Source: Patescibacteria group bacterium (GTDB lineage: Bacteria; Patescibacteriota; Minisyncoccia; Minisyncoccales; Staskawiczbacteraceae). Taken from it: a stretch of DNA of 55,646 bases. Of this stretch, positions 1-43,531 are shown in pieces (positions within the stretch are counted from its first letter, which is position 1; every line of letters begins with the position of its first letter). The stretch covers positions 1-55,646 of the forward strand of contig JBBTVX010000002.1 in assembly GCA_038063015.1 (NCBI GenBank), given 5' to 3'. The position numbers were made by a program, and so were the translations under genes. Under the pieces are notes generated by a model. The model was given only the letters and a program-made list of their open reading frames with translations. It was not told the origin of the DNA and searched no databases.

Positions 1-312
1 GAACAGCAAAACCAAATAAGGTTTCAATTAGCCGGGTCTCTTTTAGGAATTATTTCCCAAAGATTAATACCAAGAATTCGCGGAGGATTTATTCCGGTCT
101 GCGAAGTAATGATTTGCAATCAGGCAGTAGCCACTTTAATTAGAGAAAACAAAGTGCATGAAATCCCAGCGGTAATAGAAACCTCGTCTAGAGAGGGAAT
201 GATTTCTTTAAATAGGTCTTTGGTTGATTTAATAAGAAATAAAGAGATTTCTTTAAATGACGCTGTAAATTCTTCTTTTAATCCTTCAGAGTTAAAAAGC
301 TTATTAAGATGA
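1..312 (+). CDS. pilT: Type IV pilus retraction ATPase PilT/PilU, C-terminal part (truncated by window start)
   Basis: Frame is open from base 1: ...QIRFQLAGSLLGIISQRLIPR...EVMICNQAVATLIRENKVHEI...GMISLN, which matches the PilT C-terminus (AIRNLIRE-like motif). Lies directly upstream of pilC. Confidence 0.9.
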   Translation, partial: EQQNQIRFQLAGSLLGIISQRLIPRIRGGFIPVCEVMICNQAVATLIRENKVHEIPAVIETSSREGMISLNRSLVDLIRNKEISLNDAVNSSFNPSELKSLLR

Positions 313-1511
313 AGTATAATTATCAAGCCAGAACCAAAGAGGGGAAGATTGAAACAGGAACCGTTGAAGCTTCTTCAAGAGATGCCGCCGGCGCCCTTTT
401 GCAAAAATACAATATTTATGTCACTTTTCTAAAGGAAATAAAGTCGCCGTTTTCAATTAAAATAAAACTTTTTGAGAAAGCGTCAAAAAAGGATTTAGCT
501 ATATTCTCAAGACAGATGGCAGTAATGCTTGATTCAAGAGTTCCAGTAGTGCAGAGTTTAACCTCTTTGGCTGTTCAAATTCGCAAAGAATCCTTTAGAG
601 AAAAAATACTAAAAATTTCTCAGATGGTGGAAGAAGGAAGTCCCTTGTCTGAAGCTTTTGGCGTTTATTCTGATACTTTTAGTATTTTTTATGTTAATTT
701 AGTAAAATCTGGCGAGGCCTCTGGGAAAATTTCTGAAGCCCTTTATTATTTGTCAGACCATTTAGAAAGAGAGTCCGATATAGAATCTCAGTTAAAAGGC
801 GCGATGATTTATCCGATTTTCGTTTTATGCGTTCTTTTCGTGGTATTTTTAATAATAATGCTCGGCGTTATGCCAAAACTTGTTGAGCTTTTGAAAGACA
901 CCACATCAAAACCGCCCTTTTTTACCACGCTGATGATTAATTTTTATGATTTTGCAATGGGTTATGGCTGGATTATATTAGTCGCCTTTTTTCTATTAAT
1001 CGGATTTTTAGTTTATTATTTTAGAACCAAAGAAGGCAAAAAAAAGTTTGACAAAATATCTTTAAAAATACCCTTTTTTGGATCTATACTTCAAAAGGTT
1101 TTTCTTGTCCGCTTTTCTGAAAGCGTTTCTACGCTTGTTTCAGCCGGCCTTTCAATTAATAAGGCATTGCAAATTACAAGAGACACAGTGACCAATCATG
1201 TTTATAAGAATATTATTATTGAAGTGGAAAAAAATGTTTCCGAAGGAGAAAAAATTAGTTCTGTTTTGATAAAATACCCGGAACATGTGCCGATATTTGT
1301 TGTGCAAATGATTAAAGTCGGGGAGGAAACCGGCAAGTTAGGCAAAACCCTAATGGAGATAGTGAATTTTTACCAAAAAGAGGTAAAAATGGCGGTAGAA
1401 ACTTTTGCGACTCTTTTAGAGCCGATTTTAATAGTATTTTTAGGAATTACGGTGGCATTATTAGCAGTTTCTGTTTTGTCCCCGCTTTACGGGGCATTAG
1501 GAACTATTTAA
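309..1511 (+). CDS. pilC: Type IV pilus/T2SS inner-membrane platform protein PilC/GspF
   Basis: 400 aa with two T2SSF-type repeats (FSRQMAVML..GEASG; RFSESVSTLV..GEETG, LLEP) and TM segments. Confidence 0.95.
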   Translation: MKYNYQARTKEGKIETGTVEASSRDAAGALLQKYNIYVTFLKEIKSPFSIKIKLFEKASKKDLAIFSRQMAVMLDSRVPVVQSLTSLAVQIRKESFREKILKISQMVEEGSPLSEAFGVYSDTFSIFYVNLVKSGEASGKISEALYYLSDHLERESDIESQLKGAMIYPIFVLCVLFVVFLIIMLGVMPKLVELLKDTTSKPPFFTTLMINFYDFAMGYGWIILVAFFLLIGFLVYYFRTKEGKKKFDKISLKIPFFGSILQKVFLVRFSESVSTLVSAGLSINKALQITRDTVTNHVYKNIIIEVEKNVSEGEKISSVLIKYPEHVPIFVVQMIKVGEETGKLGKTLMEIVNFYQKEVKMAVETFATLLEPILIVFLGITVALLAVSVLSPLYGALGTI

Positions 1512-1514
1512 TTT

Positions 1515-1970
1515 ATGGAAAAAATAAAAGGTTTTACATTAATAGAAATGCTGGTAGCAATAGCTATTATTGTTATATTGGCCTCTGTCGCCTTGTATAG
1601 CGTTACAAAATACATAGACAAGGGGAGAGACGCAACCATAAAAGGGAGATTAGTTACTTTGGTTACAGCTGGAGAATTATGGTATGATAGAAACAATAGT
1701 AGTTATGCTAGTTTTTGCGACCCCAATCTTTCTATCGCTGTTAAAATTGTCTGGGATGAAATACCATCGGCAACCGCTGACAAACATTGCAATATAAAAA
1801 TTACTAACAATGTTGGCGTTGCCTGGGCCGCCTGCGCAAGATTTTTTGTATATCCAGACAAGGCCTTTTGCGTTGACAATAAGGGAAATCAAAAAGAGAT
1901 AAATAATTCCGATTGCACGGTTGCCACCACTAATTGTTGTTTTGCCGGCGTTGCCAATTGCATTCCTTAA
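1515..1970 (+). CDS. Type IV pilin (prepilin N-methylation motif)
   Basis: KGFTLIEMLVAIAII class III signal peptide; Cys-rich C-terminus with FCVD. Confidence 0.9.
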   Translation: MEKIKGFTLIEMLVAIAIIVILASVALYSVTKYIDKGRDATIKGRLVTLVTAGELWYDRNNSSYASFCDPNLSIAVKIVWDEIPSATADKHCNIKITNNVGVAWAACARFFVYPDKAFCVDNKGNQKEINNSDCTVATTNCCFAGVANCIP

Positions 1971-2005
1971 TTTTTAATAATTTTGAGTTATTCACACCCC
2001 TATTA

Positions 2006-2034
2006 TTGTTTGTATTTTTGGAATAAGGTAAAAT
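2006..2034 (+). promoter_or_regulatory. Putative sigma70 promoter of the first major pilin, preceded by a DnaA-box-like TTATTCACA (1988-1996)
   Basis: TTGTTT-17 nt-TAAAAT; the same module recurs at 2615-2643. Confidence 0.55.
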
Positions 2035-2103
2035 AAATAAAAGAAGCCATAATATCAAAGGTCGAGAAATATTCTGAATATTAAATGTTAGAAAAAAATA
2101 AAA

Positions 2104-2517
2104 ATGAAAAAACAAAAAGGTTTTACATTAATTGAGTTATTAGTTGTTATTGCCATTATCGGCATTTTGGCCGCTGTTTTAATGGTGAACTTGTCTAGCA
2201 CAAGAAATAAAGCCAAAGACGCGGCGATAAAATTAGAAATGGGTCAAATCAGAACAGCTATGGAAGCTTTTGCCGGTGGTAATACTTATCAGGGAGGTCT
2301 GGCTAGTGCAGATGTTGTTAATCTAAAGGCCGCTATTGTAGTTAATGGTGGCGGAACGCTTGTGGAATCTGAGCCAACCACTGCTACTCCATCCCCTAAT
2401 GCGTGGTGCGTGCAATACGCCCTAAACCCTACTGGCGGTTCATGGTGCGTGGATTCCACCGGTTATGCCGGAACAACTGCAAATTGTGATACAGCAAATA
2501 GAAATTGTGCCCCGTAA
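2104..2517 (+). CDS. Type IV pilin, probable major pilin
   Basis: KGFTLIELLVVIAIIGILAA; C-terminal WCVDSTG; has its own promoter and terminator. Confidence 0.92.
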   Translation: MKKQKGFTLIELLVVIAIIGILAAVLMVNLSSTRNKAKDAAIKLEMGQIRTAMEAFAGGNTYQGGLASADVVNLKAAIVVNGGGTLVESEPTTATPSPNAWCVQYALNPTGGSWCVDSTGYAGTTANCDTANRNCAP

Positions 2518-2543
2518 AGACAAAGATAAAACAATTATGTTTT

Positions 2544-2573
2544 ATTGGCCCCAATTCGGGGTCAATTTTTTTT
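2544..2573 (+). terminator. Rho-independent terminator after pilin
   Basis: ATTGGCCCC-AATTC-GGGGTCAAT hairpin followed by a T-run. Confidence 0.7.
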
Positions 2574-2614
2574 ATGTTTTTCTTTTTAAATTAAAAGATA
2601 TCCACATCCTTCTA

Positions 2615-2643
2615 TTGCTTGTATTTTTGCGATAAAGTAAAAT
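2615..2643 (+). promoter_or_regulatory. Putative sigma70 promoter of the second major pilin, preceded by a DnaA-box-like ATATCCACA (2598-2606)
   Basis: TTGCTT-17 nt-TAAAAT; paralogous to 2006-2034. Confidence 0.55.
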
Positions 2644-2713
2644 AGAGAAAAAGACATATAAAAATGTTAAATATTAAAAGTCGAAGAATATTCTAAAATA
2701 TTATAAATAAACA

Positions 2714-3142
2714 ATGAACAAAAATAAGTTTCAAAAAGGTTTTACCTTAATTGAGTTATTAGTTGTTATTGCCATTATCGGCATTTTGGCGTCTATGTTA
2801 ATGGTGAACTTGTCCAGCACAAGGGACAAAGCCAAGGATTCATCAATAAAATTAGAGATGGGTCAAATCAGAACAGCGATGGAGAGCGCGGCTGACAGCG
2901 GTTCTTATGATGGTTTACTTGACGCCACAAGCGGCGAGATTTTTGATTTAAGAGCGGCAATAGAAACGAATGGAGCTACGCTTATACTTGATGGAGCAAA
3001 TGATATCCCCGCAGGTTTTTGTATAGCATATGCTCTGAATACCAGCGGTAGTAATTGGTGTGTGGATTCTACTGGTTATGCTGGACCAATTGCAACTTGC
3101 GATGCTGTTGATGGTCATTTTGATTGCGATGCCACAGATTAA
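2714..3142 (+). CDS. Type IV pilin, paralog of 2104-2517
   Basis: KGFTLIELLVVIAIIGILAS; near-identical 5' ~150 nt to the upstream pilin; WCVDSTG. Confidence 0.92.
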   Translation: MNKNKFQKGFTLIELLVVIAIIGILASMLMVNLSSTRDKAKDSSIKLEMGQIRTAMESAADSGSYDGLLDATSGEIFDLRAAIETNGATLILDGANDIPAGFCIAYALNTSGSNWCVDSTGYAGPIATCDAVDGHFDCDATD

Positions 3143-3163
3143 TGATTATTTAGTAAGATTTTT

Positions 3164-3197
3164 AAATAGTCCCGCCATGGCGGGACTATTTTTTTTT
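3164..3197 (+). terminator. Rho-independent terminator
   Basis: Palindrome AAATAGTCCCGCCATGGCGGGACTATTT followed by a T-run. Confidence 0.8.
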
Positions 3198-3220
3198 ATA
3201 AAAAATGGTAAAATTAAATA

Positions 3221-4036
3221 ATGATTTATTATTTTATTTTTATTTTTTTACTCGGACTTTGTATCGGCAGTTTTTTAAATTGCGTTGTTTATAGAATGGA
3301 ATTGCAGGAAGATATGCCCAAGAGCAGTTCCCGCAGAAAAACTGTAAGTTTTATGCGGGGTAAATCTTTTTGCCCTCATTGCAAGCACGACTTGGGCTGG
3401 CAGGATTTAATTCCTGTTTTTAGTTTTTTATTTTTAAAAGGAAAGTGCAGATACTGCAAGAAAAACATATCTATTCAATATCCGTTGGTTGAGTTGTTGA
3501 CGGGCTTGCTTTTTTTGCTAATTTTTTTCGCCATAGGCGGACCAATTTCGGGCTGGAATTTTTTAATCTATTTTTTATTTTTATTGATTATTTTCTCTTT
3601 TTTAATTATTATTTTTATTTATGACCTTAAACATTATATTATTCCGGACAAAGTTTTATTTCCGGCCATTGGGATTGTTTTTTTAGAGCAGTTAATTTTT
3701 AATTTTAGATTTTTGAATTTTAACCCTTTATGGGCCGGGTTTGGGGCTTGCGCTTTTTTCTTATTTATCTTTCTTATTTCTGGCGGCCGCTGGATGGGAT
3801 TCGGAGATGTAAAATTAGCGTTTTTTATGGGTTTGTTTTTAAGTTATCCCAATATTTTAGCCGCCCTATTTTTAGCTTTCTTTTTAGGTGCTATAATAGG
3901 GGTGGGATTGATTGTTTTTGGAAGCAAGAATTTAAAGAGCGAAATACCATTTGGCCCATTTTTGATTATAGGAACATTTATCGCTCTTTTTTATGGGCAG
4001 GAAATAATACAATGGTATATGCATCTAATAATTTAA
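3221..4036 (+). CDS. pilD: Prepilin peptidase PilD (A24 family)
   Basis: GSFLNCVVYR, SFCPHC...GKCRYC zinc site, YDLKHYIIP and GFGDVKL catalytic aspartates, IPFGPF. Confidence 0.95.
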   Translation: MIYYFIFIFLLGLCIGSFLNCVVYRMELQEDMPKSSSRRKTVSFMRGKSFCPHCKHDLGWQDLIPVFSFLFLKGKCRYCKKNISIQYPLVELLTGLLFLLIFFAIGGPISGWNFLIYFLFLLIIFSFLIIIFIYDLKHYIIPDKVLFPAIGIVFLEQLIFNFRFLNFNPLWAGFGACAFFLFIFLISGGRWMGFGDVKLAFFMGLFLSYPNILAALFLAFFLGAIIGVGLIVFGSKNLKSEIPFGPFLIIGTFIALFYGQEIIQWYMHLII

Positions 4037-4650
4037 AACGCACATCTTCATCAAGAGGCATCACTCTAATTGAAATTTTAGTAGTTGTTTTTATTATCGC
4101 TCTTTTTTCAAGTATTTTGGTGACTGATTTTCCAAAAATAAAACGCCAGTTCGCGCTGACCAGAGCTGTTTATAAAATGAGCCAAGATTTAAGAAGAACT
4201 CAGGATATGGGATTTTCAGGACAGCAGATAGAAGGGTTAGACGTAAAAGGATATGGAGTTTATATAAATCTTGATGATGCCAATTTGCGCAACAAAAAAT
4301 ATATAATATATGCCGATAGGGGCAATACTCCTGACCAAAAATATAGCGAGGAGTCCTTTGTGGATTGCAGGCAACAAACGAATCCTCAAGCAGATTGCGT
4401 TATAGAAGAAATAGATTTAAGTCAAACCGAACCAGAAGTGATTATAAATACAATTGAGAATACTGCAGACGGCCGATGGGTAGATATTAATTTTGCGCCT
4501 CCAAACCCCGCCACAACGATAACAGAGTTAGCCGAGGATTCATCGGGGACAAAGTTTAATCGGGCGATGATTATTTTTGCCATAGAATCCGAGCCATTAA
4601 AAGAAAGAATGGTTTCAGTAAATACTTCGGGTTTAATAGAAATAAAATAA
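4012..4650 (+). CDS. Minor pilin (FimT/GspH-like)
   Basis: RGITLIEILVVVFII. The start is probably ATG 4012 rather than 3730, which overlaps pilD. Confidence 0.8.
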   Translation: MVYASNNLKRTSSSRGITLIEILVVVFIIALFSSILVTDFPKIKRQFALTRAVYKMSQDLRRTQDMGFSGQQIEGLDVKGYGVYINLDDANLRNKKYIIYADRGNTPDQKYSEESFVDCRQQTNPQADCVIEEIDLSQTEPEVIINTIENTADGRWVDINFAPPNPATTITELAEDSSGTKFNRAMIIFAIESEPLKERMVSVNTSGLIEIK

Positions 4651-5213
4651 TGCTACATAATATAAAAAATAAAGGGTTTACATTAATTGAACTGATAATC
4701 GCTATTCTTATTTTAGCCGTTGCTACTATCGGCGTTTATAATTCTTTTTCAACAGTTGTTATTTTTACTGATGGCGTTTCTTCGCGCCTTACAGCGGCCT
4801 ATCTTGCTCAAGAAGGTATAGAAATAGTAAGAAATATGAGAGATAATAATTGGTTGGACGTTTATCAAGGTTGGAAAAAAGGACTTTCAGATACAAACAC
4901 AGATTGTTCAAATGGATGCGAGGCGGATTATAGAACCGGCACATTAATCGACGCAAGGGGCGGATTGACAAGTTTTGGCAGTAGCGGAAATTATTTAAAT
5001 ATAAACAACAATAAAGGTTTTTATAGTTACGACGAAGTGGGTGATTTCACAAAAACAAAATTTAAAAGAAAAATTACAATTACGCCAGACCCCGATTCTC
5101 TTAGGCCGGTTTTAAAAGTTTCTGTTTTGGTGACTTGGAAAGAAAAAGAAGAATATGGTTGCGATTATGGTTATTGCATTGAGGCAGAGGAGTATTTATA
5201 TAATTGGTATTAA
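4650..5213 (+). CDS. Minor pilin (PilV-like)
   Basis: KGFTLIELIIAI...AAYLAQEGIEIVRN. Confidence 0.85.
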   Translation: MLHNIKNKGFTLIELIIAILILAVATIGVYNSFSTVVIFTDGVSSRLTAAYLAQEGIEIVRNMRDNNWLDVYQGWKKGLSDTNTDCSNGCEADYRTGTLIDARGGLTSFGSSGNYLNINNNKGFYSYDEVGDFTKTKFKRKITITPDPDSLRPVLKVSVLVTWKEKEEYGCDYGYCIEAEEYLYNWY

Positions 5214-5228
5214 ATTATTAAATTATTT

Positions 5229-5856
5229 ATGAAGAATGCCTCTAAAGGGTTTACACTGATAGAATTAATTGTGGTTACAGCCGTATTTTTGTTTGTTGTG
5301 GGCGCCGCGGTTGGTATCTTTATTTCTATTGTGCAACACCAAAGAATAATTTTAGTTAAACAAGAGCTTTCAAACCAAGTGAGTTATGCTTTAGAGCATA
5401 TGTCAAAAGCTTTAAGGATGGCGGGAAAAGATACGGATGGCAGGTGCCTGGGAACAGAGTTTGCGAGATATAATTATTTGCTAACTATCAAAGATATTTC
5501 TAACGGCGTTTATACGGGTATAAAATTTATAAACCAATCGGATATAAACGAAACTACCGGACAGCCGGTTTGTCAGGAATTTTATTTAGACGACGATTAC
5601 CCGGAAAACCCGGTTTTAAAAGAAAAAAAAGACGGAATTCCTTCAGCCGGAATCGCTCTTATTTCTGATAAATTTATGATAAATTCTATTAGATTTGGCA
5701 TAAATGGCGAGGATGGTTTATTGGGTGGGCTTGAAGGCGCGGACGGGGATAATTATATTCAGCCGAGAGTAACTATTTATTTAGATGTTCAAGTTAAAGG
5801 AGACGACAAGCAGCCAGCAGAAAAAATTCAAACAACTATTTCACAAAGAGACCTAA

Positions 5857-5867
<11 letters not shown>
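5229..5867 (+). CDS. Minor pilin (PilW-like)
   Basis: KGFTLIELIVVTAVF...ALEHMSKALR...QTTIS. Confidence 0.85.
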
Positions 5868-8416
<2,549 letters not shown>

Positions 8417-8418
8417 AA

Positions 8419-9507
8419 ATGACATTTTTTTCTCATTTTAAAAAATTAGATTGGTGGTTGATAATTTCAGCGGTTTTAATTGCCGGTTTTGGGTTGGCAT
8501 CAATCTATAGCTCTTCTTTGCCCAAAGATGATTTTTTAAATTTTGAAAAACAAGTTGTTTTTTTTGTAGTTGGCTTCGCCTTGATGCTTTTTATTAGTTT
8601 TTTTGACTATAGGGTTTTACGAAATAATTCTTACTTAATTTTAGCGCTCTATTTTGTATGCCTCCTTTTATTGTTGGGCTTGTTCTTTTTTGCTCCAGAA
8701 ATAAGGGGAACTAAGGGGTGGTATAAAATAGGTCTTTTTTCTTTTGACCCGATTGAGCCGACCAAATTGGTTTTAATAATTTTATTAGCCAAATATTTTT
8801 CAATGAGGCATGTTGAAATGTATAAGTTCAGGCACATTATTTTTTCCGGTGTTTATGTTTTCTTGCCCAGTTTTTTGATTTTTTTAAAGCCGGATTTGGG
8901 CGGAACTATGATATTGCTCGCAATGTGGCTCGGCGTCTTGCTTATCTCTGGAATTAAAATTAAACACTTTTTAATTTTATCTTTATGTTTTTTAATAGTA
9001 GTCGGTTTCGCTTGGAATTTTCTATTAAAAGATTATCAAAAAGACCGGGTTTTATCTTTTGTATTTCTTTATGATCCCCTGGGGGGATCTTGGAGTCAGA
9101 CACAATCTAAAATCGCCATAGGGTCTGGAATGTTCTTGGGTCAAGGAGTTGGCAAAGGGTCCCAAGTGCAATATGGATTTCTGCCGGAGCCGCACACCGA
9201 CTTTGTTTTTTCTGTTATAGCGGAGGAGTGGGGTTTTTTGGGGATATCTGTCCTTTTTTTACTGTATATAAATTTAATTTGGCGGATACTAAAAATTGCA
9301 ATAGATTCTCAAACTAATTTTCCCCGGCTTTTTGCTTCTGGCTTTGCTATTGTTTTGATAGCCCAGTTTGTTATTAATATAGGAATGAATCTTTCAATGC
9401 TCCCGGTTGTTGGCATTTATCTTCCCTTGGTGAGCTACGGGGGCTCGGGATTAATTGGCACATTTGTTGGCCTTGGCATACTGCAATCAATAAAAGCGAA
9501 AGGATAA
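8419..9507 (+). CDS. rodA: SEDS family peptidoglycan polymerase RodA/FtsW
   Basis: KPDLG, QSKIAIGSG, LPEPHTDFVFSVIAEEWG, SYGGS. Confidence 0.9.
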   Translation: MTFFSHFKKLDWWLIISAVLIAGFGLASIYSSSLPKDDFLNFEKQVVFFVVGFALMLFISFFDYRVLRNNSYLILALYFVCLLLLLGLFFFAPEIRGTKGWYKIGLFSFDPIEPTKLVLIILLAKYFSMRHVEMYKFRHIIFSGVYVFLPSFLIFLKPDLGGTMILLAMWLGVLLISGIKIKHFLILSLCFLIVVGFAWNFLLKDYQKDRVLSFVFLYDPLGGSWSQTQSKIAIGSGMFLGQGVGKGSQVQYGFLPEPHTDFVFSVIAEEWGFLGISVLFLLYINLIWRILKIAIDSQTNFPRLFASGFAIVLIAQFVINIGMNLSMLPVVGIYLPLVSYGGSGLIGTFVGLGILQSIKAKG

Positions 9508-9585
9508 TCCTTAAAAGATTGCGCAAGCTCGGCGTTGCATTTTTGTTTAAAAAATAGTAGAATAAAATAATTAACCAACAAAACT

Positions 9586-9849
9586 ATGGCAGTAATAAAA
9601 AAGAAAATATGGCAGGAGTATTTTGAGCTTGTGTCTTCCGGAAAAAAGAAGTTTGAATTAAGGCTTGCGGATTTTGATATTGCGGAAGGAGATATGCTTT
9701 TGTTGGAAGAGTGGGATTCTAAAACAAAGGAATATACCGGCAGAACCATTGAGAAAAAAGTCAGCTTCCTCTTAAAATTCAAACTTGATGACTTCGGCCA
9801 GGAGCAGGAAATCAAAGAAAAAGGATTTTTAGTTATTCAATTAAATTAA
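9586..9849 (+). CDS. ASCH/PUA-like domain protein (DUF3850-like)
   Basis: KIWQEYFELVSSGKKKFELR...GDMLLLEEW...YTGR. Confidence 0.8.
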   Translation: MAVIKKKIWQEYFELVSSGKKKFELRLADFDIAEGDMLLLEEWDSKTKEYTGRTIEKKVSFLLKFKLDDFGQEQEIKEKGFLVIQLN

Positions 9850-9851
9850 AC

Positions 9852-12017
9852 ATGGAAAAAGAGCCATCTGAAAAAAAGGACGAGGAAATGACTTTGCCAA
9901 TCCAGGAAGAAATGGTAGCGAACGAGAAAGAAAGCGAGGTCAACTTCACGCCCGAACAATTGACAGAGATTGAAAATAAAAGACAAATTTTGTCATCGCT
10001 TGCATATTTTATTGGCAAGGATTTTAACATACCTGTCGAGTTAAACCAACCAGGCGCAGGATGGCACTGGGATTTTAAGGAAAACAAAATAAGAGTAGAT
10101 CCTAAGGATTTATTGGAAAAACCAATGGATTATTTGCGTTTTGTGATATCTCATGAGGCGGGGCACAGAAGAATTTCAAGGGCGGATTTTATTCCTCAAG
10201 AAGAATGGGCGCAGCCCGGTTTTTCTTTTATGATGAATGTTGTTGAGGCTTCTCGAGACAATAATTTTGTGGCCGAAAGTTACCACAAATTTAAAGAGCA
10301 GATGGAGTTGGCTTACGAACAACAATTAGATTTTGAGGCCAAGACAGAGGATGCGGCGAGCAAGAAATTAGGGGAAATGCCGCGCTTTGTACAGGCCGGA
10401 TTTGAACTTATAAAACAATGGCACAAAGAATCGCAGGGCCAGCCATTTGATATTTCAACTGACTTGCCCGAAGATGTTAGAAATGTAGTTGAAAAAACGT
10501 TAAAATCTGCGCAGGATTCATGGTGGAGATATCCGTCCAGAGAAGAGGCAGATGACGCTAAAAAAGGCGAGAAGAATATAATTGCTTACGCAAAACTTTC
10601 TTACGAAATAAATAGAGATGAAATATGGCCTGAATTTAAAAAATTAGTTGATGAAGATATGAAAGACCAAGAAACGCAGGAATCTATGAAAGAAATGCAA
10701 AGGGAAAAACAAGCGGGCGGTCAAATTCCTCAGGATTTACAGGATAAACTTACCCCAGAAGAGCAGAAAGAATTAGATAAAGCGCTTAGCGATGCCATAA
10801 AAGAAGCGTTAAAAGAATCTGAAGAACAAGCCGAACAAGGACAGCCTCAACAAGACCAGGAGTCACAAGATTCAGAACAGCAAAAGCCGGGTCAAAAGCC
10901 AATTGACATTTCCAAATTGTCAGAGGGTCTTAAACAAAAAATTAGTGAATATGTTGATTCTTTGCCAGAAGAGGAGCGGGAGGATTTAGAGGAGAAAGCC
11001 AAAGCCGCGCTGAAAGAATTTGAAAAATCAGTAAATGAAGACTTGCAGGGTAAGTTATGCAAAAACCCAGAGGAAGAAACGGGCAAGTCAGAAGAACTAA
11101 CAGAATCAAAAACAGAAGCGTCTAAAGACGAAGAAAGCTGGAGTAAATCAGAAAAGGCCAGCAAGAGAGAGATAGAACAGCTCCGTAGAAAAATAGAATC
11201 AGTGTTTGAGGCTGGAGAGAAAAGCCCCTACCAAGAGGCATTAATTGAAACTTCTGAACTAATAGATGCTTTAACTGCGGACCTGCGAGATGTTTTTGCA
11301 AAAAGAAAAATTGAAAAATATGAGACTGGATATCGTTCAGGCCGACGCTGGAATATCCGCCAAAGAATTAGAGAAAAAGTCGCCGGAATACCTCTTTTTA
11401 AAACTGAGGCGAGAGAACAGAAAACAAGCGAAAGCGAAGAGATGGATTATGCCATTACTCTTTTGGTTGATTTGTCCGGCTCTATGGGGGATAACAATAA
11501 AATTCAGGAAACGTTTAGGTCAACAGTTGTTTTGGCTGAAACTTTAAATAATCTTGGAATTAATTTTGAGATTGTAGGTTTTCAGGATGTTTTGTTGGAA
11601 TTTAAATCGTTTCAAGAGCGTCTTGATGAGCCGATGCAAAATAAGTTGAACGGAATGATATTGGAAGTTTATGGATCAAACCCAGACGGCCATAACAATC
11701 CGAGAGATAACGATGATGGAGTTGCCTTGCTTGAAGCATCGAAGCTTTTGGCGGAGCAGACTGCAAAAAATAAATTTCTTGTAGTTCTTTCCGACGGCTT
11801 GCCCGAGACAAATTATAAGAGTTCTGCTCAGCTTAGCCGCGAGCTTAAGGAAGCAGTTACAGAGGTGACGGGGAACACAAATCAAAAGCTTATTGGCATA
11901 GGATTAATGTCAAATGCGGTAAAAAAATATTATGAGAATAATATTGCTGGCGTTTCAACTAAAGAGATGGCGGAAACTTTTGGCGGGCTTTTGAGAGAAA
12001 TCATTGAAAAATATTGA
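9852..12017 (+). CDS. VWA-domain protein with N-terminal HExxH (CobT-like partner of a MoxR-type ATPase)
   Basis: SHEAGH near the N-terminus, acidic/Gln-rich linker, C-terminal VWA MIDAS (LLVDLSGSM...VLSDG). Confidence 0.85.
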   Translation: MEKEPSEKKDEEMTLPIQEEMVANEKESEVNFTPEQLTEIENKRQILSSLAYFIGKDFNIPVELNQPGAGWHWDFKENKIRVDPKDLLEKPMDYLRFVISHEAGHRRISRADFIPQEEWAQPGFSFMMNVVEASRDNNFVAESYHKFKEQMELAYEQQLDFEAKTEDAASKKLGEMPRFVQAGFELIKQWHKESQGQPFDISTDLPEDVRNVVEKTLKSAQDSWWRYPSREEADDAKKGEKNIIAYAKLSYEINRDEIWPEFKKLVDEDMKDQETQESMKEMQREKQAGGQIPQDLQDKLTPEEQKELDKALSDAIKEALKESEEQAEQGQPQQDQESQDSEQQKPGQKPIDISKLSEGLKQKISEYVDSLPEEEREDLEEKAKAALKEFEKSVNEDLQGKLCKNPEEETGKSEELTESKTEASKDEESWSKSEKASKREIEQLRRKIESVFEAGEKSPYQEALIETSELIDALTADLRDVFAKRKIEKYETGYRSGRRWNIRQRIREKVAGIPLFKTEAREQKTSESEEMDYAITLLVDLSGSMGDNNKIQETFRSTVVLAETLNNLGINFEIVGFQDVLLEFKSFQERLDEPMQNKLNGMILEVYGSNPDGHNNPRDNDDGVALLEASKLLAEQTAKNKFLVVLSDGLPETNYKSSAQLSRELKEAVTEVTGNTNQKLIGIGLMSNAVKKYYENNIAGVSTKEMAETFGGLLREIIEKY

Positions 12018-12047
12018 GATTTAATTTAGAATAAATTAATTACTTCT

Positions 12048-12479
12048 ATGCAAACAGCAATTAAAGAGAGGACTGACAAATTAGCCAATCTATCTAACGT
12101 CTTTTTAAAGGTTGGACTTTTAGTTGCAGAGGGAAAAACAGATCCAAAAGTAAGGATTACTAAAGCTAAAAAAACCTTAGTGAATTCGGGCTATAAAGAG
12201 TGCACTGATTACATCCAAGTTATGGATGCATTATCGTCTGGCAAAGATAAAATTTTTTACATAGAAAAAAATAAAAAATTGGATGGGTTGGTTTTGGAAA
12301 TTATTGCCGAATTTGACGCCGGAATTGTCAGCTTGGCGGACAGAAAAAATAACACAGGATTGAAGACGGCAAATTGGGACCCATCTAAAACTTCTTTTGT
12401 TGTAATTATGACTCGAAAACAGATAGAGCAAAGCTACCCGCGTCTTTTTGAATACATAAATATTATTCAATCTCTATAA
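12048..12479 (+). CDS. Hypothetical protein in the VWA-AAA operon
   Basis: 143-aa ORF tightly packed between the VWA and AAA genes. Confidence 0.7.
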   Translation: MQTAIKERTDKLANLSNVFLKVGLLVAEGKTDPKVRITKAKKTLVNSGYKECTDYIQVMDALSSGKDKIFYIEKNKKLDGLVLEIIAEFDAGIVSLADRKNNTGLKTANWDPSKTSFVVIMTRKQIEQSYPRLFEYINIIQSL

Positions 12480-12483
12480 AATA

Positions 12484-32508: not shown

Positions 32509-33060
32509 CTATTGAACTTTTACATAATAATTCATACCGTAGCTGGTATCGCAAGAAGCACAACAAGTACTTGTCCACAAGTCGCCTGTTCCACCGCCTT
32601 CTAATCTAGCATATATGTATGTTACTCTTTGACCTGATTCTGAACAAGTATATTTCATATAAAAATATAAACTCGGGGCTCTTATGCCACCGCTAGGGTC
32701 AATAATTTCTGTTGATAAAATTCCTGCGTTAATAAGGCATTGAGCCATTGAGATGGGAGCGCCAGAATAATCAAAATTAAACCAGCCATTGCCGCCCCCC
32801 CCACTTCCCGCATCGCATCTATCGTCAGTGTTAGTTTCAATCCAGCTATTATAAGCGGTATTGTACATAATTAACGCTAGTCTTATTTGGTTCAAGTCGG
32901 ATATTCTCCGGCTGTCTCTGGCTTTTGCCTTAAATCCTTGCACGCCCACAAAAACAATGCTGGATAAAAGAGAAATAATAGCAAGGACCACCAGCATTTC
33001 AACTAAGGTAAATCCGGTTAGAAGTTTGTTTTTTTTATTTTTGTATTTATTCTGTCCCAT
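32509..33060 (-). CDS. Orphan type IV pilin/GspG-like protein
   Basis: GFTLVEMLVVLAII...KARDSRRISDLNQI; likely start ATG 33060. Confidence 0.85.
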   Translation of the reverse strand: MGQNKYKNKKNKLLTGFTLVEMLVVLAIISLLSSIVFVGVQGFKAKARDSRRISDLNQIRLALIMYNTAYNSWIETNTDDRCDAGSGGGGNGWFNFDYSGAPISMAQCLINAGILSTEIIDPSGGIRAPSLYFYMKYTCSESGQRVTYIYARLEGGGTGDLWTSTCCASCDTSYGMNYYVKVQ

Positions 33061-33067
33061 ACAATTT

Positions 33068-33388
33068 TTAAGGAGTAATATCGGCTGGAGAACCGGCCTC
33101 CTCCCCAAAGTTTTCTATCGGCGCTTGATTTTTTATTTTTATGCCATTATTTCCTCCAAAAACCAAAAACAGCGAAATAATAATCGCTAGCCCAGCAAAT
33201 CCCAAAAGAATGTATTGCGCTTGAATCTCACTTTTTACCAGCCCGCCGGAACGTTTTATTACCCATTGAATCATTTTTGGAGTCCCGGGAGGGAAAGATT
33301 GGACAGGCAACTGGCCTTCGTCTTGAGATTTCACATTAGAATCTTTAAACGCGTTGCTTAAATCTATTTTATCGTTGTTGTTTATCAT
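33068..33388 (-). CDS. Hypothetical single-pass membrane protein
   Basis: 106 aa with one hydrophobic segment; PKMIQWVIKRSGGLVK. Confidence 0.65.
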   Translation of the reverse strand: MINNNDKIDLSNAFKDSNVKSQDEGQLPVQSFPPGTPKMIQWVIKRSGGLVKSEIQAQYILLGFAGLAIIISLFLVFGGNNGIKIKNQAPIENFGEEAGSPADITP

Positions 33389-42964: not shown

Positions 42965-43531
42965 TTAGAGCTCGAAAAGTTTCTTGATGTTTTTGTCGTC
43001 TTCAATTCTGTTTATTTCCAAAAATTTTATATCTCCGCCAAAATCCATTTTCCAGAGTTTCAACAAGATAAATAGCTCCTTTTTTATGTTAAGAGGGGTG
43101 ATCCAAATACTTTTTTGGAGCTCCTTAAAACCCATCCACTTAAGCTCTTTCCTTAAGAAATCCCTGCTTCTTCTGTTTATCTCCGGAATGTCAAAGATAA
43201 TTGCTCGCCATTTTTTGTCCCACTTTTCATCAGCAAATTTTTCTTTTATTATATTTTTTATAATTTTTATTCTACCTTTTTCAGTCAAATAAATTTTGCC
43301 GTTTTTTCGCTCAAAGGATGAAACTTTATCCAAATTATCGGACCATCTTGTGATTAAAGAGGTGATAAAAGGATATCTCACATAAAAGCCAGCGTTTTTT
43401 ATCATTTTGTCTGGATCTATTATTAAATCTATACCTCCCAAAATTAGGTTTTTGGAAGTTTCTTTTAAATAGTCCAAAATGATTTTTGTGGGGAAATTTA
43501 ATTTTTTTGATTTATTGTTTTTTTCTTTCAT
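42965..43531 (-). CDS. PaaX-like protein (Cas2-like central domain)
   Basis: YLTEKG...KWDKKWRAIIFDIPE..R..RDFLRKELKWMGFKELQKSIW. Confidence 0.82.
   Translation of the reverse strand: MKEKNNKSKKLNFPTKIILDYLKETSKNLILGGIDLIIDPDKMIKNAGFYVRYPFITSLITRWSDNLDKVSSFERKNGKIYLTEKGRIKIIKNIIKEKFADEKWDKKWRAIIFDIPEINRRSRDFLRKELKWMGFKELQKSIWITPLNIKKELFILLKLWKMDFGGDIKFLEINRIEDDKNIKKLFEL

Follow-up and report, generated by a model that had tools for sequence, protein, structure and literature searches.

In this study, we analyzed a stretch of 55,646 nucleotides from a Patescibacteria group bacterium (GenBank assembly GCA_038063015.1, contig JBBTVX010000002.1, positions 1 to 55,646 of the forward strand), hereafter called the window, with respect to three neighboring genes, A, B, and C, and the remains of a diversity-generating retroelement (DGR) located next to them. 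All three genes lie on the plus strand. Gene A (9852-12017; 721 aa) encodes a zincin-like domain, an acidic/charged linker, and a von Willebrand factor A (vWA) domain of the CobT/NorD/midasin type. Gene B (12048-12479; 143 aa) encodes a small conserved protein of unrecognized family, and gene C (12484-14790; 768 aa) encodes an AAA_5 ATPase followed by a linker and a C-terminal domain resembling formylglycine-generating enzyme (FGE) and C-type lectins (CLec), which carries a variable region (VR). The gap between A and B comprises 30 nt, that between B and C 4 nt, and each of the three genes is present in a single copy in the genome. That the trio belongs to a DGR cassette of Patescibacteria, and that this cassette has decayed in the window, is very probable.

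An earlier note, made from the sequence alone, had described a tight, co-oriented group of an HEAGH- and VWA-containing protein, a 143-aa protein, and an AAA ATPase with a variable region; open reading frames (ORFs), positions, and motifs all proved to be as described there. The note had also assumed a cytoplasmic location. In agreement with this, neither a transmembrane helix nor a signal peptide was found in A, B, or C, and the maximal Kyte-Doolittle means over 19 residues (1.13, 1.47, and 0.89, respectively) stay below the level of such segments in all three proteins.

Repeat pair and variable region of gene C

A direct repeat of 908 nt with 91% identity connects 13883-14781 at the 3′-end of gene C with 16315-17222 inside a downstream ORF, orf455. 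Beyond this pair, no further copy of the repeat or of its terminal variable part was found in the 594-kb assembly. In the last 109 nt of the repeat (14673-14781 in gene C, 17114-17222 in orf455), 10 of the 27 adenines of the orf455 copy are changed in gene C, compared with 1 of the 82 other bases (Fisher p = 1.8e-6). The two diverged zones further upstream in the repeat show mostly third-position changes and no adenine bias (Fisher p = 0.67 and 1.0), and a tract of 472 nt (14087-14558 vs 16528-16999) is free of differences. Differences which are almost completely restricted to template adenines are the signature of a DGR; thus, the gene C copy is the VR and the orf455 copy is the template repeat (TR), both on the plus strand. 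The changed codons fall within residues 733 to 759 of gene C and are affected at codon position 1 or 2 throughout.

The TR is fused in frame to a second target gene. The open frame of orf455 comprises 455 aa (16143-17510, plus strand), and its body upstream of the TR (16143-17113) is a truncated paralogue of the C-terminal domain of gene C. A simple partial duplication of gene C was rejected as its origin, because orf455 aligns at its N-terminus not with C but with a family of target proteins which stand alone and measure 437-460 aa (P0056, P0053, P0059). Compared with these homologues, the N-terminus is about 50-110 residues shorter, the stop codon is missing where the homologues end, and the last ~95 residues are an antisense reading of the accessory gene avd. 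The 3′ flank of the TR is homologous to the flank following the TR of a related genome, G153, and not to the flank following the VR there. On the simplest reading of the sequence, the VR of the second target would have recombined with the TR, thereby deleting a spacer of ~330 nt, and the 5′-end of the gene would have been lost as well. Alternatively, orf455 could be a functional second variable protein, for which its uninterrupted frame, the similar length of the stand-alone homologues, and the identity of parts of it with gene C could be cited. Given the antisense avd tail, the missing stop codon, the shortened N-terminus, the TR-type 3′ flank, and the fact that every variable codon carries template adenines, we consider this improbable.

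The perfect identity between gene C and orf455 over 472 nt may partly be due to assembly collapse, and one of the two copies may be wrong over ~110 nt. In contigs of one sequencing run, the segments 14087-14297 and 14411-14558 have a depth of ~48, while two alternative contigs with a depth of ~27 each, which are 13 substitutions and 3 one-base gaps apart, cover 16709-16881. The suspicion of a collapse is based on these two equally deep alternatives in comparison with the shared flanks. The runs examined exist as contigs, which cannot show rare variants of the VR.

The earlier note had expected a C-type lectin fold for the C-terminal part of gene C, and the structure model is in line with this. 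Residues 460-768 were modelled with a predicted local distance difference test score (pLDDT) of 94.9, and residues ~523-768 (14050-14787, plus strand) adopt an FGE-sulfatase/C-type-lectin-like fold in the model. Structural neighbors of this part (model residues ~64-309) in VIA-align were headed by an FGE paralogue (Z 6.8, 146 residues aligned), EgtB (6.6), and CarF (6.4). Further down follow three DGR proteins, TvpA (Z 6.1, 150 aligned), Mtd (5.8, 137 aligned), and TaqVP (4.6), as well as the C-terminal domain of Lcl (5.4) and dozens of classical C-type lectins (3.4-4.4). For FGE, EgtB, TvpA, and Mtd, the alignments span 137-153 residues. Among the 50 neighbors listed, all are FGE/CLec or C-type lectin proteins apart from a few adhesin, fimbrial, or peptidase entries (PorK, IgA peptidase, fimbrial protein). 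No FGE-sulfatase or DUF1566 domain was found in gene C by Pfam. Taken together, the model supports a lectin-like fold consistently, not strongly, with all Z-scores below 8, and we have moderate confidence that gene C is a variable protein of the CLec-fold type with its VR at the C-terminus. The changed VR residues are located on the last two long strands of the model (274-281 and 286-292) and in the loop after them. Compared with Mtd (1yu0), TvpA (2y3c), and TaqVP (5vf4), the last ~245 residues of gene C have a similar fold over 137-150 aligned residues with the VR at the extreme C-terminus, although the identity is only 7-16%. Also, the variable domain of gene C is fused to a motor domain in a protein predicted to be cytoplasmic, in contrast to Mtd, which forms the tip of a phage tail fibre, and to TvpA, a lipoprotein.

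Conservation of the cassette

A search with gene C yielded 57 proteins, mostly annotated as "MoxR family ATPases" of ~690 aa from Patescibacteria, which have the first ~430 residues in common and differ in their C-terminal modules, each ending in a VR-like tail. For the analysis of gene neighborhoods, 54 related loci from a scan with one genome per species were used. Co-conservation of the genes, which the earlier note had proposed as a check, was thereby confirmed. A homologue of gene A is located directly upstream of C on the same strand in 53 of the 54 loci, and a hidden Markov model of the gene B family matches the ORF directly upstream of C in the same 53 loci; the remaining locus (L040) begins inside gene C. 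Hence, the order A-B-C is kept in all 53 informative loci of other genomes, and it is usually followed by a TR, an antisense avd, and a reverse transcriptase (RT) gene.

Just upstream of the antisense avd, 26 of the 54 loci have a TR in which adenines account for at least 90% of the mismatches; in L015, a 27th locus, they account for 15 of 19. Gene C runs off the contig in seven loci; the rest have either copies of mixed mismatch type only or no second copy at all within the stretch retrieved. A second target, visible as an extra VR-like copy, lies between C and the TR in at least nine loci. The cassette thus begins with A, B, and C, has another CLec target after these in some loci, and ends with TR, antisense avd, and RT. 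For the RT tally, only the 37 loci with at least 3 kb of sequence downstream of C were considered. An RT match was obtained in 29 of these, as a single ORF of at least 300 aa in 21 and short or fragmented in 8; the remaining 8 had no RT match, so that loss of the RT with retention of the trio is common. With the whole gene C protein (P0003) as query at E <= 1e-10, only its C-terminal part gave matches, which came from 6 of 400 further genomes in the class of the source organism; absence of the ATPase is not implied by this, as a long query can miss weak matches.

Two of the loci have special features. One (L035) contains two tandem ATPase genes of the C type (5380-7434 and 7947-10133), and both VRs match one TR, adenines accounting for 13 of 14 mismatches in one pair and for all 15 in the other. 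Another A-B-C cassette (L026) is found on a contig labelled Micrarchaeota archaeon.

Decay of the retroelement

Downstream of the TR, a remnant of avd is present on the minus strand (17234-17545) as an ORF of 103 aa, from which ~36 N-terminal residues are missing. It is matched by NCBIfam DivGenRetAVD below the cut-off (8.2e-12; 45.4 bits vs 80 bits) and by the PHROG family "Avd protein of DGR" (1.9e-10). Its closest relative is the Avd of genome G153 (4e-47), and in a tblastn search with the latter only residues 37-144 could be aligned to the window. In G153, the target is followed by a spacer, the TR, avd (minus strand), and the RT. The window is collinear with the TR-avd block of G153 from 17127 to 17524, where homology stops; consequently, the first ~36 Avd residues and the entire RT are absent from the window. 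No RVT family was detected among the ORFs of the window, and thus no DGR-type RT lies beside the TR, while in related loci the RT directly follows avd. Where the avd/RT homology ends, an ORF with a PaaX_M/Cas2-like domain begins (17474-18196, plus strand; 9.7e-19), and a second one is located at 42965-43531 (minus strand; 7.9e-20). Neither a CRISPR array nor other cas genes were noticed in general scans of the window.

In the whole genome, RT-like sequence was found only on contigs C1 and C6. The C1 locus (L002, 117413-120736) contains an RT split by in-frame stops beside a divergent Avd of 134 aa. The C6 locus (L001, 46980-50582) contains an RT of 263 aa, in which ~73 N-terminal residues are missing, a short divergent Avd-like ORF, and an upstream ORF of 250 aa with a VR-like C-terminus. 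Judged from sequence, all three DGRs of this small genome look inactive. In the window, the decay comprises the loss of the RT, the 5′-truncation of avd, the loss of the 5′-end of the second target and its fusion to the TR, and the insertion of a GIY-YIG gene and an AbiE-type gene pair. The view of the earlier note, that the recognition surface is being mutagenized from this locus, therefore did not hold: the RT is absent, the avd gene is incomplete, and neither of the other RTs in the genome is intact. From the decay of the retroelement it follows that the tip of gene C is a record of past mutagenesis, which is most likely frozen now.

Diversification of gene C could still go on if an RT encoded elsewhere, at another locus or in unassembled DNA, acted in trans and used the fused transcript of second target and TR as template. 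In favor of this, TR and 3′ flank have remained intact, with similarity to the TR flank of G153, gene C is an intact ORF, and the genome assembly, which is 87.5% complete, contains two more DGR-type loci. However, the RTs at these loci are those with in-frame stops or a missing N-terminus, and their Avd proteins are distant from that of the window (5e-12 compared with 4e-47 for G153). In addition, the window Avd itself is incomplete and the assembly holds no other VR/TR copy. We therefore regard continued diversification in trans as distinctly improbable.

ATPase module of gene C

Gene C consists of a conserved N-terminal module (residues ~1-430) containing AAA_5, a linker, and the C-terminal FGE/CLec-like domain. 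The AAA_5 core comprises residues 90-218 (12751-13137, plus strand), with Walker A GGTGVYNKTT (residues 93-102) and Walker B FLDEYN (residues 163-168). The Pfam match to AAA_5 (5.2e-9) reached 36.7 bits at a cut-off of 22 bits. G93, G94, T95, K100, T101, D165, E166, and N214 are invariant in 21 gene C sequences, so that Walker A, Walker B, and sensor residues of an AAA_5 ATPase are present, with N replacing G before K in Walker A. A more distant gene C clade, with the same or another tail, has the canonical Walker A GGTSLGKT.

The earlier note had classified this ATPase as MoxR-type, which is correct only in the broad sense. AAA_3, the family of MoxR proper, remained below its cut-off (0.0063; 16.8 bits vs 27 bits), and a MoxR structure (2r44) was matched at 0.0026 only. 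In profile searches against PDB, far better matches were obtained for midasin (8.5e-70, in four stretches), NorQ (1.9e-14), CobS (2.4e-14), and CbbQ (2.9e-13).

Gene A and gene B

In gene A, the zincin-like domain (residues ~30-270) is followed by the acidic/charged linker (~270-470) and the C-terminal vWA domain with a complete metal ion-dependent adhesion site (MIDAS) motif. The vWA part was matched by Pfam CobT_C above the cut-off (4.1e-16) and by VWA below it (3.9e-4); PDB profiles gave CobT (4.6e-20), the MIDAS domain of midasin (5.4e-10), and NorD (7.2e-5). The MIDAS residues (11469-11798, plus strand) are contained in DLSGSM (residues 540-545) and LSDG (646-649). In an alignment of 38 gene A sequences, D540, S544, S647, and D648 are invariant and S542 is nearly so. 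The gene A protein thus has the DxSxS...T/D...D pattern of a MIDAS-type vWA domain.

The N-terminal domain carries the zinc-binding motif HEAGH (residues 101-105; 10152-10166, plus strand), with E132 (10245-10247) as candidate third ligand. H101, E102, H105, and E132 were invariant in 32 of 32 gene A sequences; in the larger alignment of 38, the motif is lost in one (L059). The first 280 residues were modelled with a pLDDT of 87.3. In the model, helix 92-108 carries HExxH and the long helix after it (124-143) carries E132, a placement which corresponds to the gluzincin arrangement. The VIA-align neighbors of this domain are almost all zincins (Z 5.2-7.6), among them an HtpX domain (7.6; 74 residues aligned, root mean square deviation 2.4), jannalysin (7.4), selecase (6.8), and BepA (6.5), followed by Ste24, Wss1, and ECE-1. 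The best Foldseek matches were the minigluzincins selecase, abylysin, and jannalysin, together with LTA4 hydrolase; none was significant, and for selecase a probability of ~1 came with an E-value of 0.1. Based on HExxH and a downstream Glu on a modelled zincin fold, gene A is predicted to encode a peptidase. Like in minigluzincins and M48-type zincins (selecase, jannalysin, abylysin, HtpX, BepA, Ste24), HExxH lies on an active-site helix preceded by a three-stranded sheet, and Glu lies on the next helix. Unlike these, the predicted peptidase of gene A is soluble, fused to a vWA domain, and related by structure only (Z 6.5-7.6), as no sequence-level family was found for it in Pfam, NCBIfam, and PDB profile searches.

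When the zincin domain was used as a profile, 478 of 1.84 billion representative clusters were matched at E <= 1e-3. In the top 150, 104 clusters are at least 600 aa long and 96 cover the whole zincin and vWA profile; the domain is therefore confined almost entirely to this combined architecture.

Searches of Pfam, NCBIfam, PADLOC, and PHROGs assigned gene B to no family. Sequence profiles of PDB entries were matched at chance level only (E ~0.8-1), and the ESM Atlas gave no usable feature match and a poor model (pLDDT 0.40). When members of the gene B family were compared with Pfam, no family, VMAP included, was matched by more than 1 of 34 members.

Comparison with known systems

The fusion of an AAA ATPase to a CLec domain is the commonest DGR target in the Candidate Phyla Radiation (CPR) according to Paul et al. 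2017 (Nat Microbiol), as cited in PMC10907252. Gene C is a member of this published class: it shares the N-terminal AAA ATPase, the C-terminal VR with CLec fold, the adenine-specific TR/VR differences, and the lack of membrane segments and signal peptides. It differs from the published targets in that the DGR has lost its RT. In the literature searched, no description of the always adjacent zincin-vWA gene and the small gene was found, though the text or supplements of Paul et al. 2017 may contain one. CPR targets of DGR clade 2 are typically without recognizable conserved domain, according to Roux et al. 2021 (PMC8144416).

The logic of the trio appears to match that of the ternary MoxR-vWA conflict systems of the VMAP type, although the parts are assigned to other proteins. 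These systems are described as associated with DGRs in Kaur et al. 2020 (PMC7159879) and Dore et al. 2024 (PMC10907252). Their set of components is that of the trio: a broadly MoxR-like AAA+ ATPase, a protein with vWA, a third protein, a peptidase, and a CLec/FGS sensor diversified by a DGR. A cytoplasmic location is predicted for both. In the VMAP systems, however, the vWA protein carries CLec and VMAP carries the peptidase, whereas in the trio these are found on the ATPase and on the vWA protein, respectively. A VMAP component was not found here: gene B has no VMAP match, and no other conserved third gene was found in the 54 loci. The N-terminal motifs WxhapG and PsWRxa, described for the MoxR proteins of VMAP systems, are also absent from gene C, which has no tryptophan in residues 1-90. 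VMAP systems were reported from multicellular actinobacteria, cyanobacteria, and others, and the statistics of the paper reporting this did not include CPR.

Proposed mechanism and its alternatives

Systems in which an AAA ATPase works with a vWA partner include NorQ-NorD, CobS-CobT, CbbQ-CbbO, and midasin. The trio shares with them sequence homology in the ATPase core and in vWA/MIDAS, as well as the side-by-side arrangement of the genes. By analogy to these systems, the gene C protein would form a cytoplasmic hexameric ring showing six CLec tips, which would choose a ligand. The gene A protein would dock on the ring or on the captured ligand via its MIDAS site, and ATP hydrolysis would deliver the ligand to the zincin of gene A or switch the zincin on. 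The specificity of such a ligand-directed AAA+/peptidase machine could be reprogrammed by the DGR. We propose this mechanism tentatively and give it somewhat less than even chances. The biological role could be anti-phage, in another conflict, or in host interaction; the adaptive conflict or host-interaction machine suggested in the earlier note thus stays plausible as a proposal. The reading as a whole, which takes the trio as target module of a DGR cassette widespread in Patescibacteria, with a retroelement that has decayed here and a ring and peptidase that would act as proposed, is the one we favor, with a modest lead over its being wrong in some part. More far-reaching, and in our view rather unlikely, is the idea of the trio as a self-contained, reprogrammable intracellular targeting machine, in which the DGR would write a new tip onto a hexameric AAA+ ring, and the ring would feed its capture to a dedicated zincin, tethered via MIDAS-vWA, or would activate this zincin. 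The trio would then represent a prokaryotic system for adaptive degradation or sensing. On this idea, the retention of the trio in loci where the RT is missing (8 of 37) or short or fragmented (another 8 of 37) would indicate that useful specificities become fixed again and again, after which the mutator is dropped.

Several points weigh against the favored reading. Ring formation, docking of A to C, peptidase activity, and the ligand are all only predicted. Walker A of gene C (12760-12789) reads GxxGxxNKT and not GxxxxGKT, a variant which is conserved in the close clade, and with this deviation the ATPase activity of gene C is not assured. The Z-scores of the gene A and gene C models, all being below 8, are in a range for which the tool warns that similarity may reflect a common arrangement, and Foldseek searches with the two models against PDB gave no match at E <= 0.001 (best E-values 0.066 and 0.1). 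One difference between VR and TR, at 14725 (A in gene C, G in the TR copy), lies off the template adenines. Finally, with the assembly being incomplete, an intact RT could lie in unassembled DNA.

The ATPase/vWA analogy also allows another reading, in which the three proteins would do housekeeping work, as a metallochaperone or an assembly factor of the CobST, NorQD, or CbbQO type, with no role in conflict, and the CLec tail would pick a cellular client. This would fit the fact that the best relatives with solved structures are CobT, CobS, NorQ, NorD, CbbQ, and midasin, that the flanks are housekeeping genes, and that the trio is kept where the RT was not found or is fragmented. Yet CobS-CobT, NorQ-NorD, CbbQ-CbbO, and midasin have fixed clients (cobalt insertion, NOR, Rubisco, and pre-60S particles, respectively), without a DGR, a CLec tail on the ATPase, or a zincin on the vWA protein. 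A fixed client needs no DGR-varied tip, while almost half of the loci (26/54) have a clean TR-VR pair; the invariant zincin domain of gene A has no counterpart in those chaperone pairs; and the distribution is patchy, with only C-terminal matches to the whole gene C protein in those 6 of 400 genomes. A housekeeping role thus has a slim chance.

Neighboring genes and genomic context

The favored reading of the trio as target module of a decayed DGR cassette also has to be seen in its surroundings. An ORF with an ASCH/DUF3850 domain (9586-9849; Pfam) ends 2 nt before gene A. As no homologue was found in the 54 related loci, the tight spacing to gene A is a local arrangement and not a feature of the cassette. 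Between gene C and the TR, an ORF with a GIY-YIG nuclease domain is located (14760-15068, plus strand; Pfam 1.2e-14), which has a homologue in only one of the 54 loci and does not belong to the conserved cassette. It is followed by a gene pair of the DUF6922 + AbiEii toxin-antitoxin (TA) type (15170-16059, plus strand), likewise inside the cassette. Homologues of DUF6922 and AbiEii occur in two and three of the 54 loci, respectively, at differing positions. In L064, the pair lies between A and B (6625-7523), and in L063 downstream of the RT (12915-13795). It looks like a mobile TA module which repeatedly landed in DGR cassettes. Just upstream of the pair, a strong sigma-70-like promoter match (11/12) was observed at 15136-15164, and the first gene of the pair had a contig depth far above that of its flanks in runs of other studies. 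Promoter and terminator scans gave 26 and 13 matches, close to the 22.0 ± 4.6 and 8.6 ± 2.9, respectively, of shuffled controls.

Further away, the cassette is flanked by ligA, ftsW, and rpoB/rpoC. A cluster resembling type IV pilus and type II secretion systems is encoded at 1-5867 and 32509-33108 of the window, including T2SSF, an A24 prepilin peptidase, and at least six ORFs with N-terminal methylation motifs, the 5′-ends of which form a repeat family (D3, D4).

The cassette could also be cargo of a phage or mobile element, used for host takeover and not by the cell itself. Phage families in PHROGs do match gene A (CobT-like, 2.4e-17) and gene C (CobS/"porphyrin biosynthesis", 4.2e-19), and mobile genes are present in form of GIY-YIG and the TA pair. 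Nevertheless, no phage structural, integrase, or terminase family was found among the scanned window ORFs of at least 100 aa, the cassette sits between core genes, and its GC content is only slightly raised (0.40 vs ~0.35-0.39), which makes a cargo function hardly probable. The chances are poorer still for a defence island, as suggested in the earlier note, in which the trio would act together with its ASCH and AbiEii neighbors: the 2-nt distance to ASCH and the presence of the AbiEii-type pair and GIY-YIG within 1.3 kb downstream stand against the absence or rarity of these genes in related loci at varying positions, the core genes outside, the interruption of the DGR cassette by the AbiEii pair, which does not flank it, and PADLOC-DB 2.0 (E <= 0.01), which gave no match for A, B, C, or ASCH and, in the window, only matches to the AbiEii and Cas2-like neighbors.

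Meaning for the biology of Patescibacteria

For the trio as target module of a DGR cassette, the copy in the window is a clear example of decay, with deletion of RT and part of avd, a TR joined to the second target, and the entry of both a GIY-YIG gene and a TA pair, while the trio remained intact throughout. DGR targets are abundant in CPR; if their ATPase always works together with a zincin-vWA protein and a small protein, their purpose becomes testable biochemically, and the sensor-transducer-effector logic of MoxR-vWA systems, known from multicellular bacteria, would extend to ultra-small episymbionts with a different wiring.

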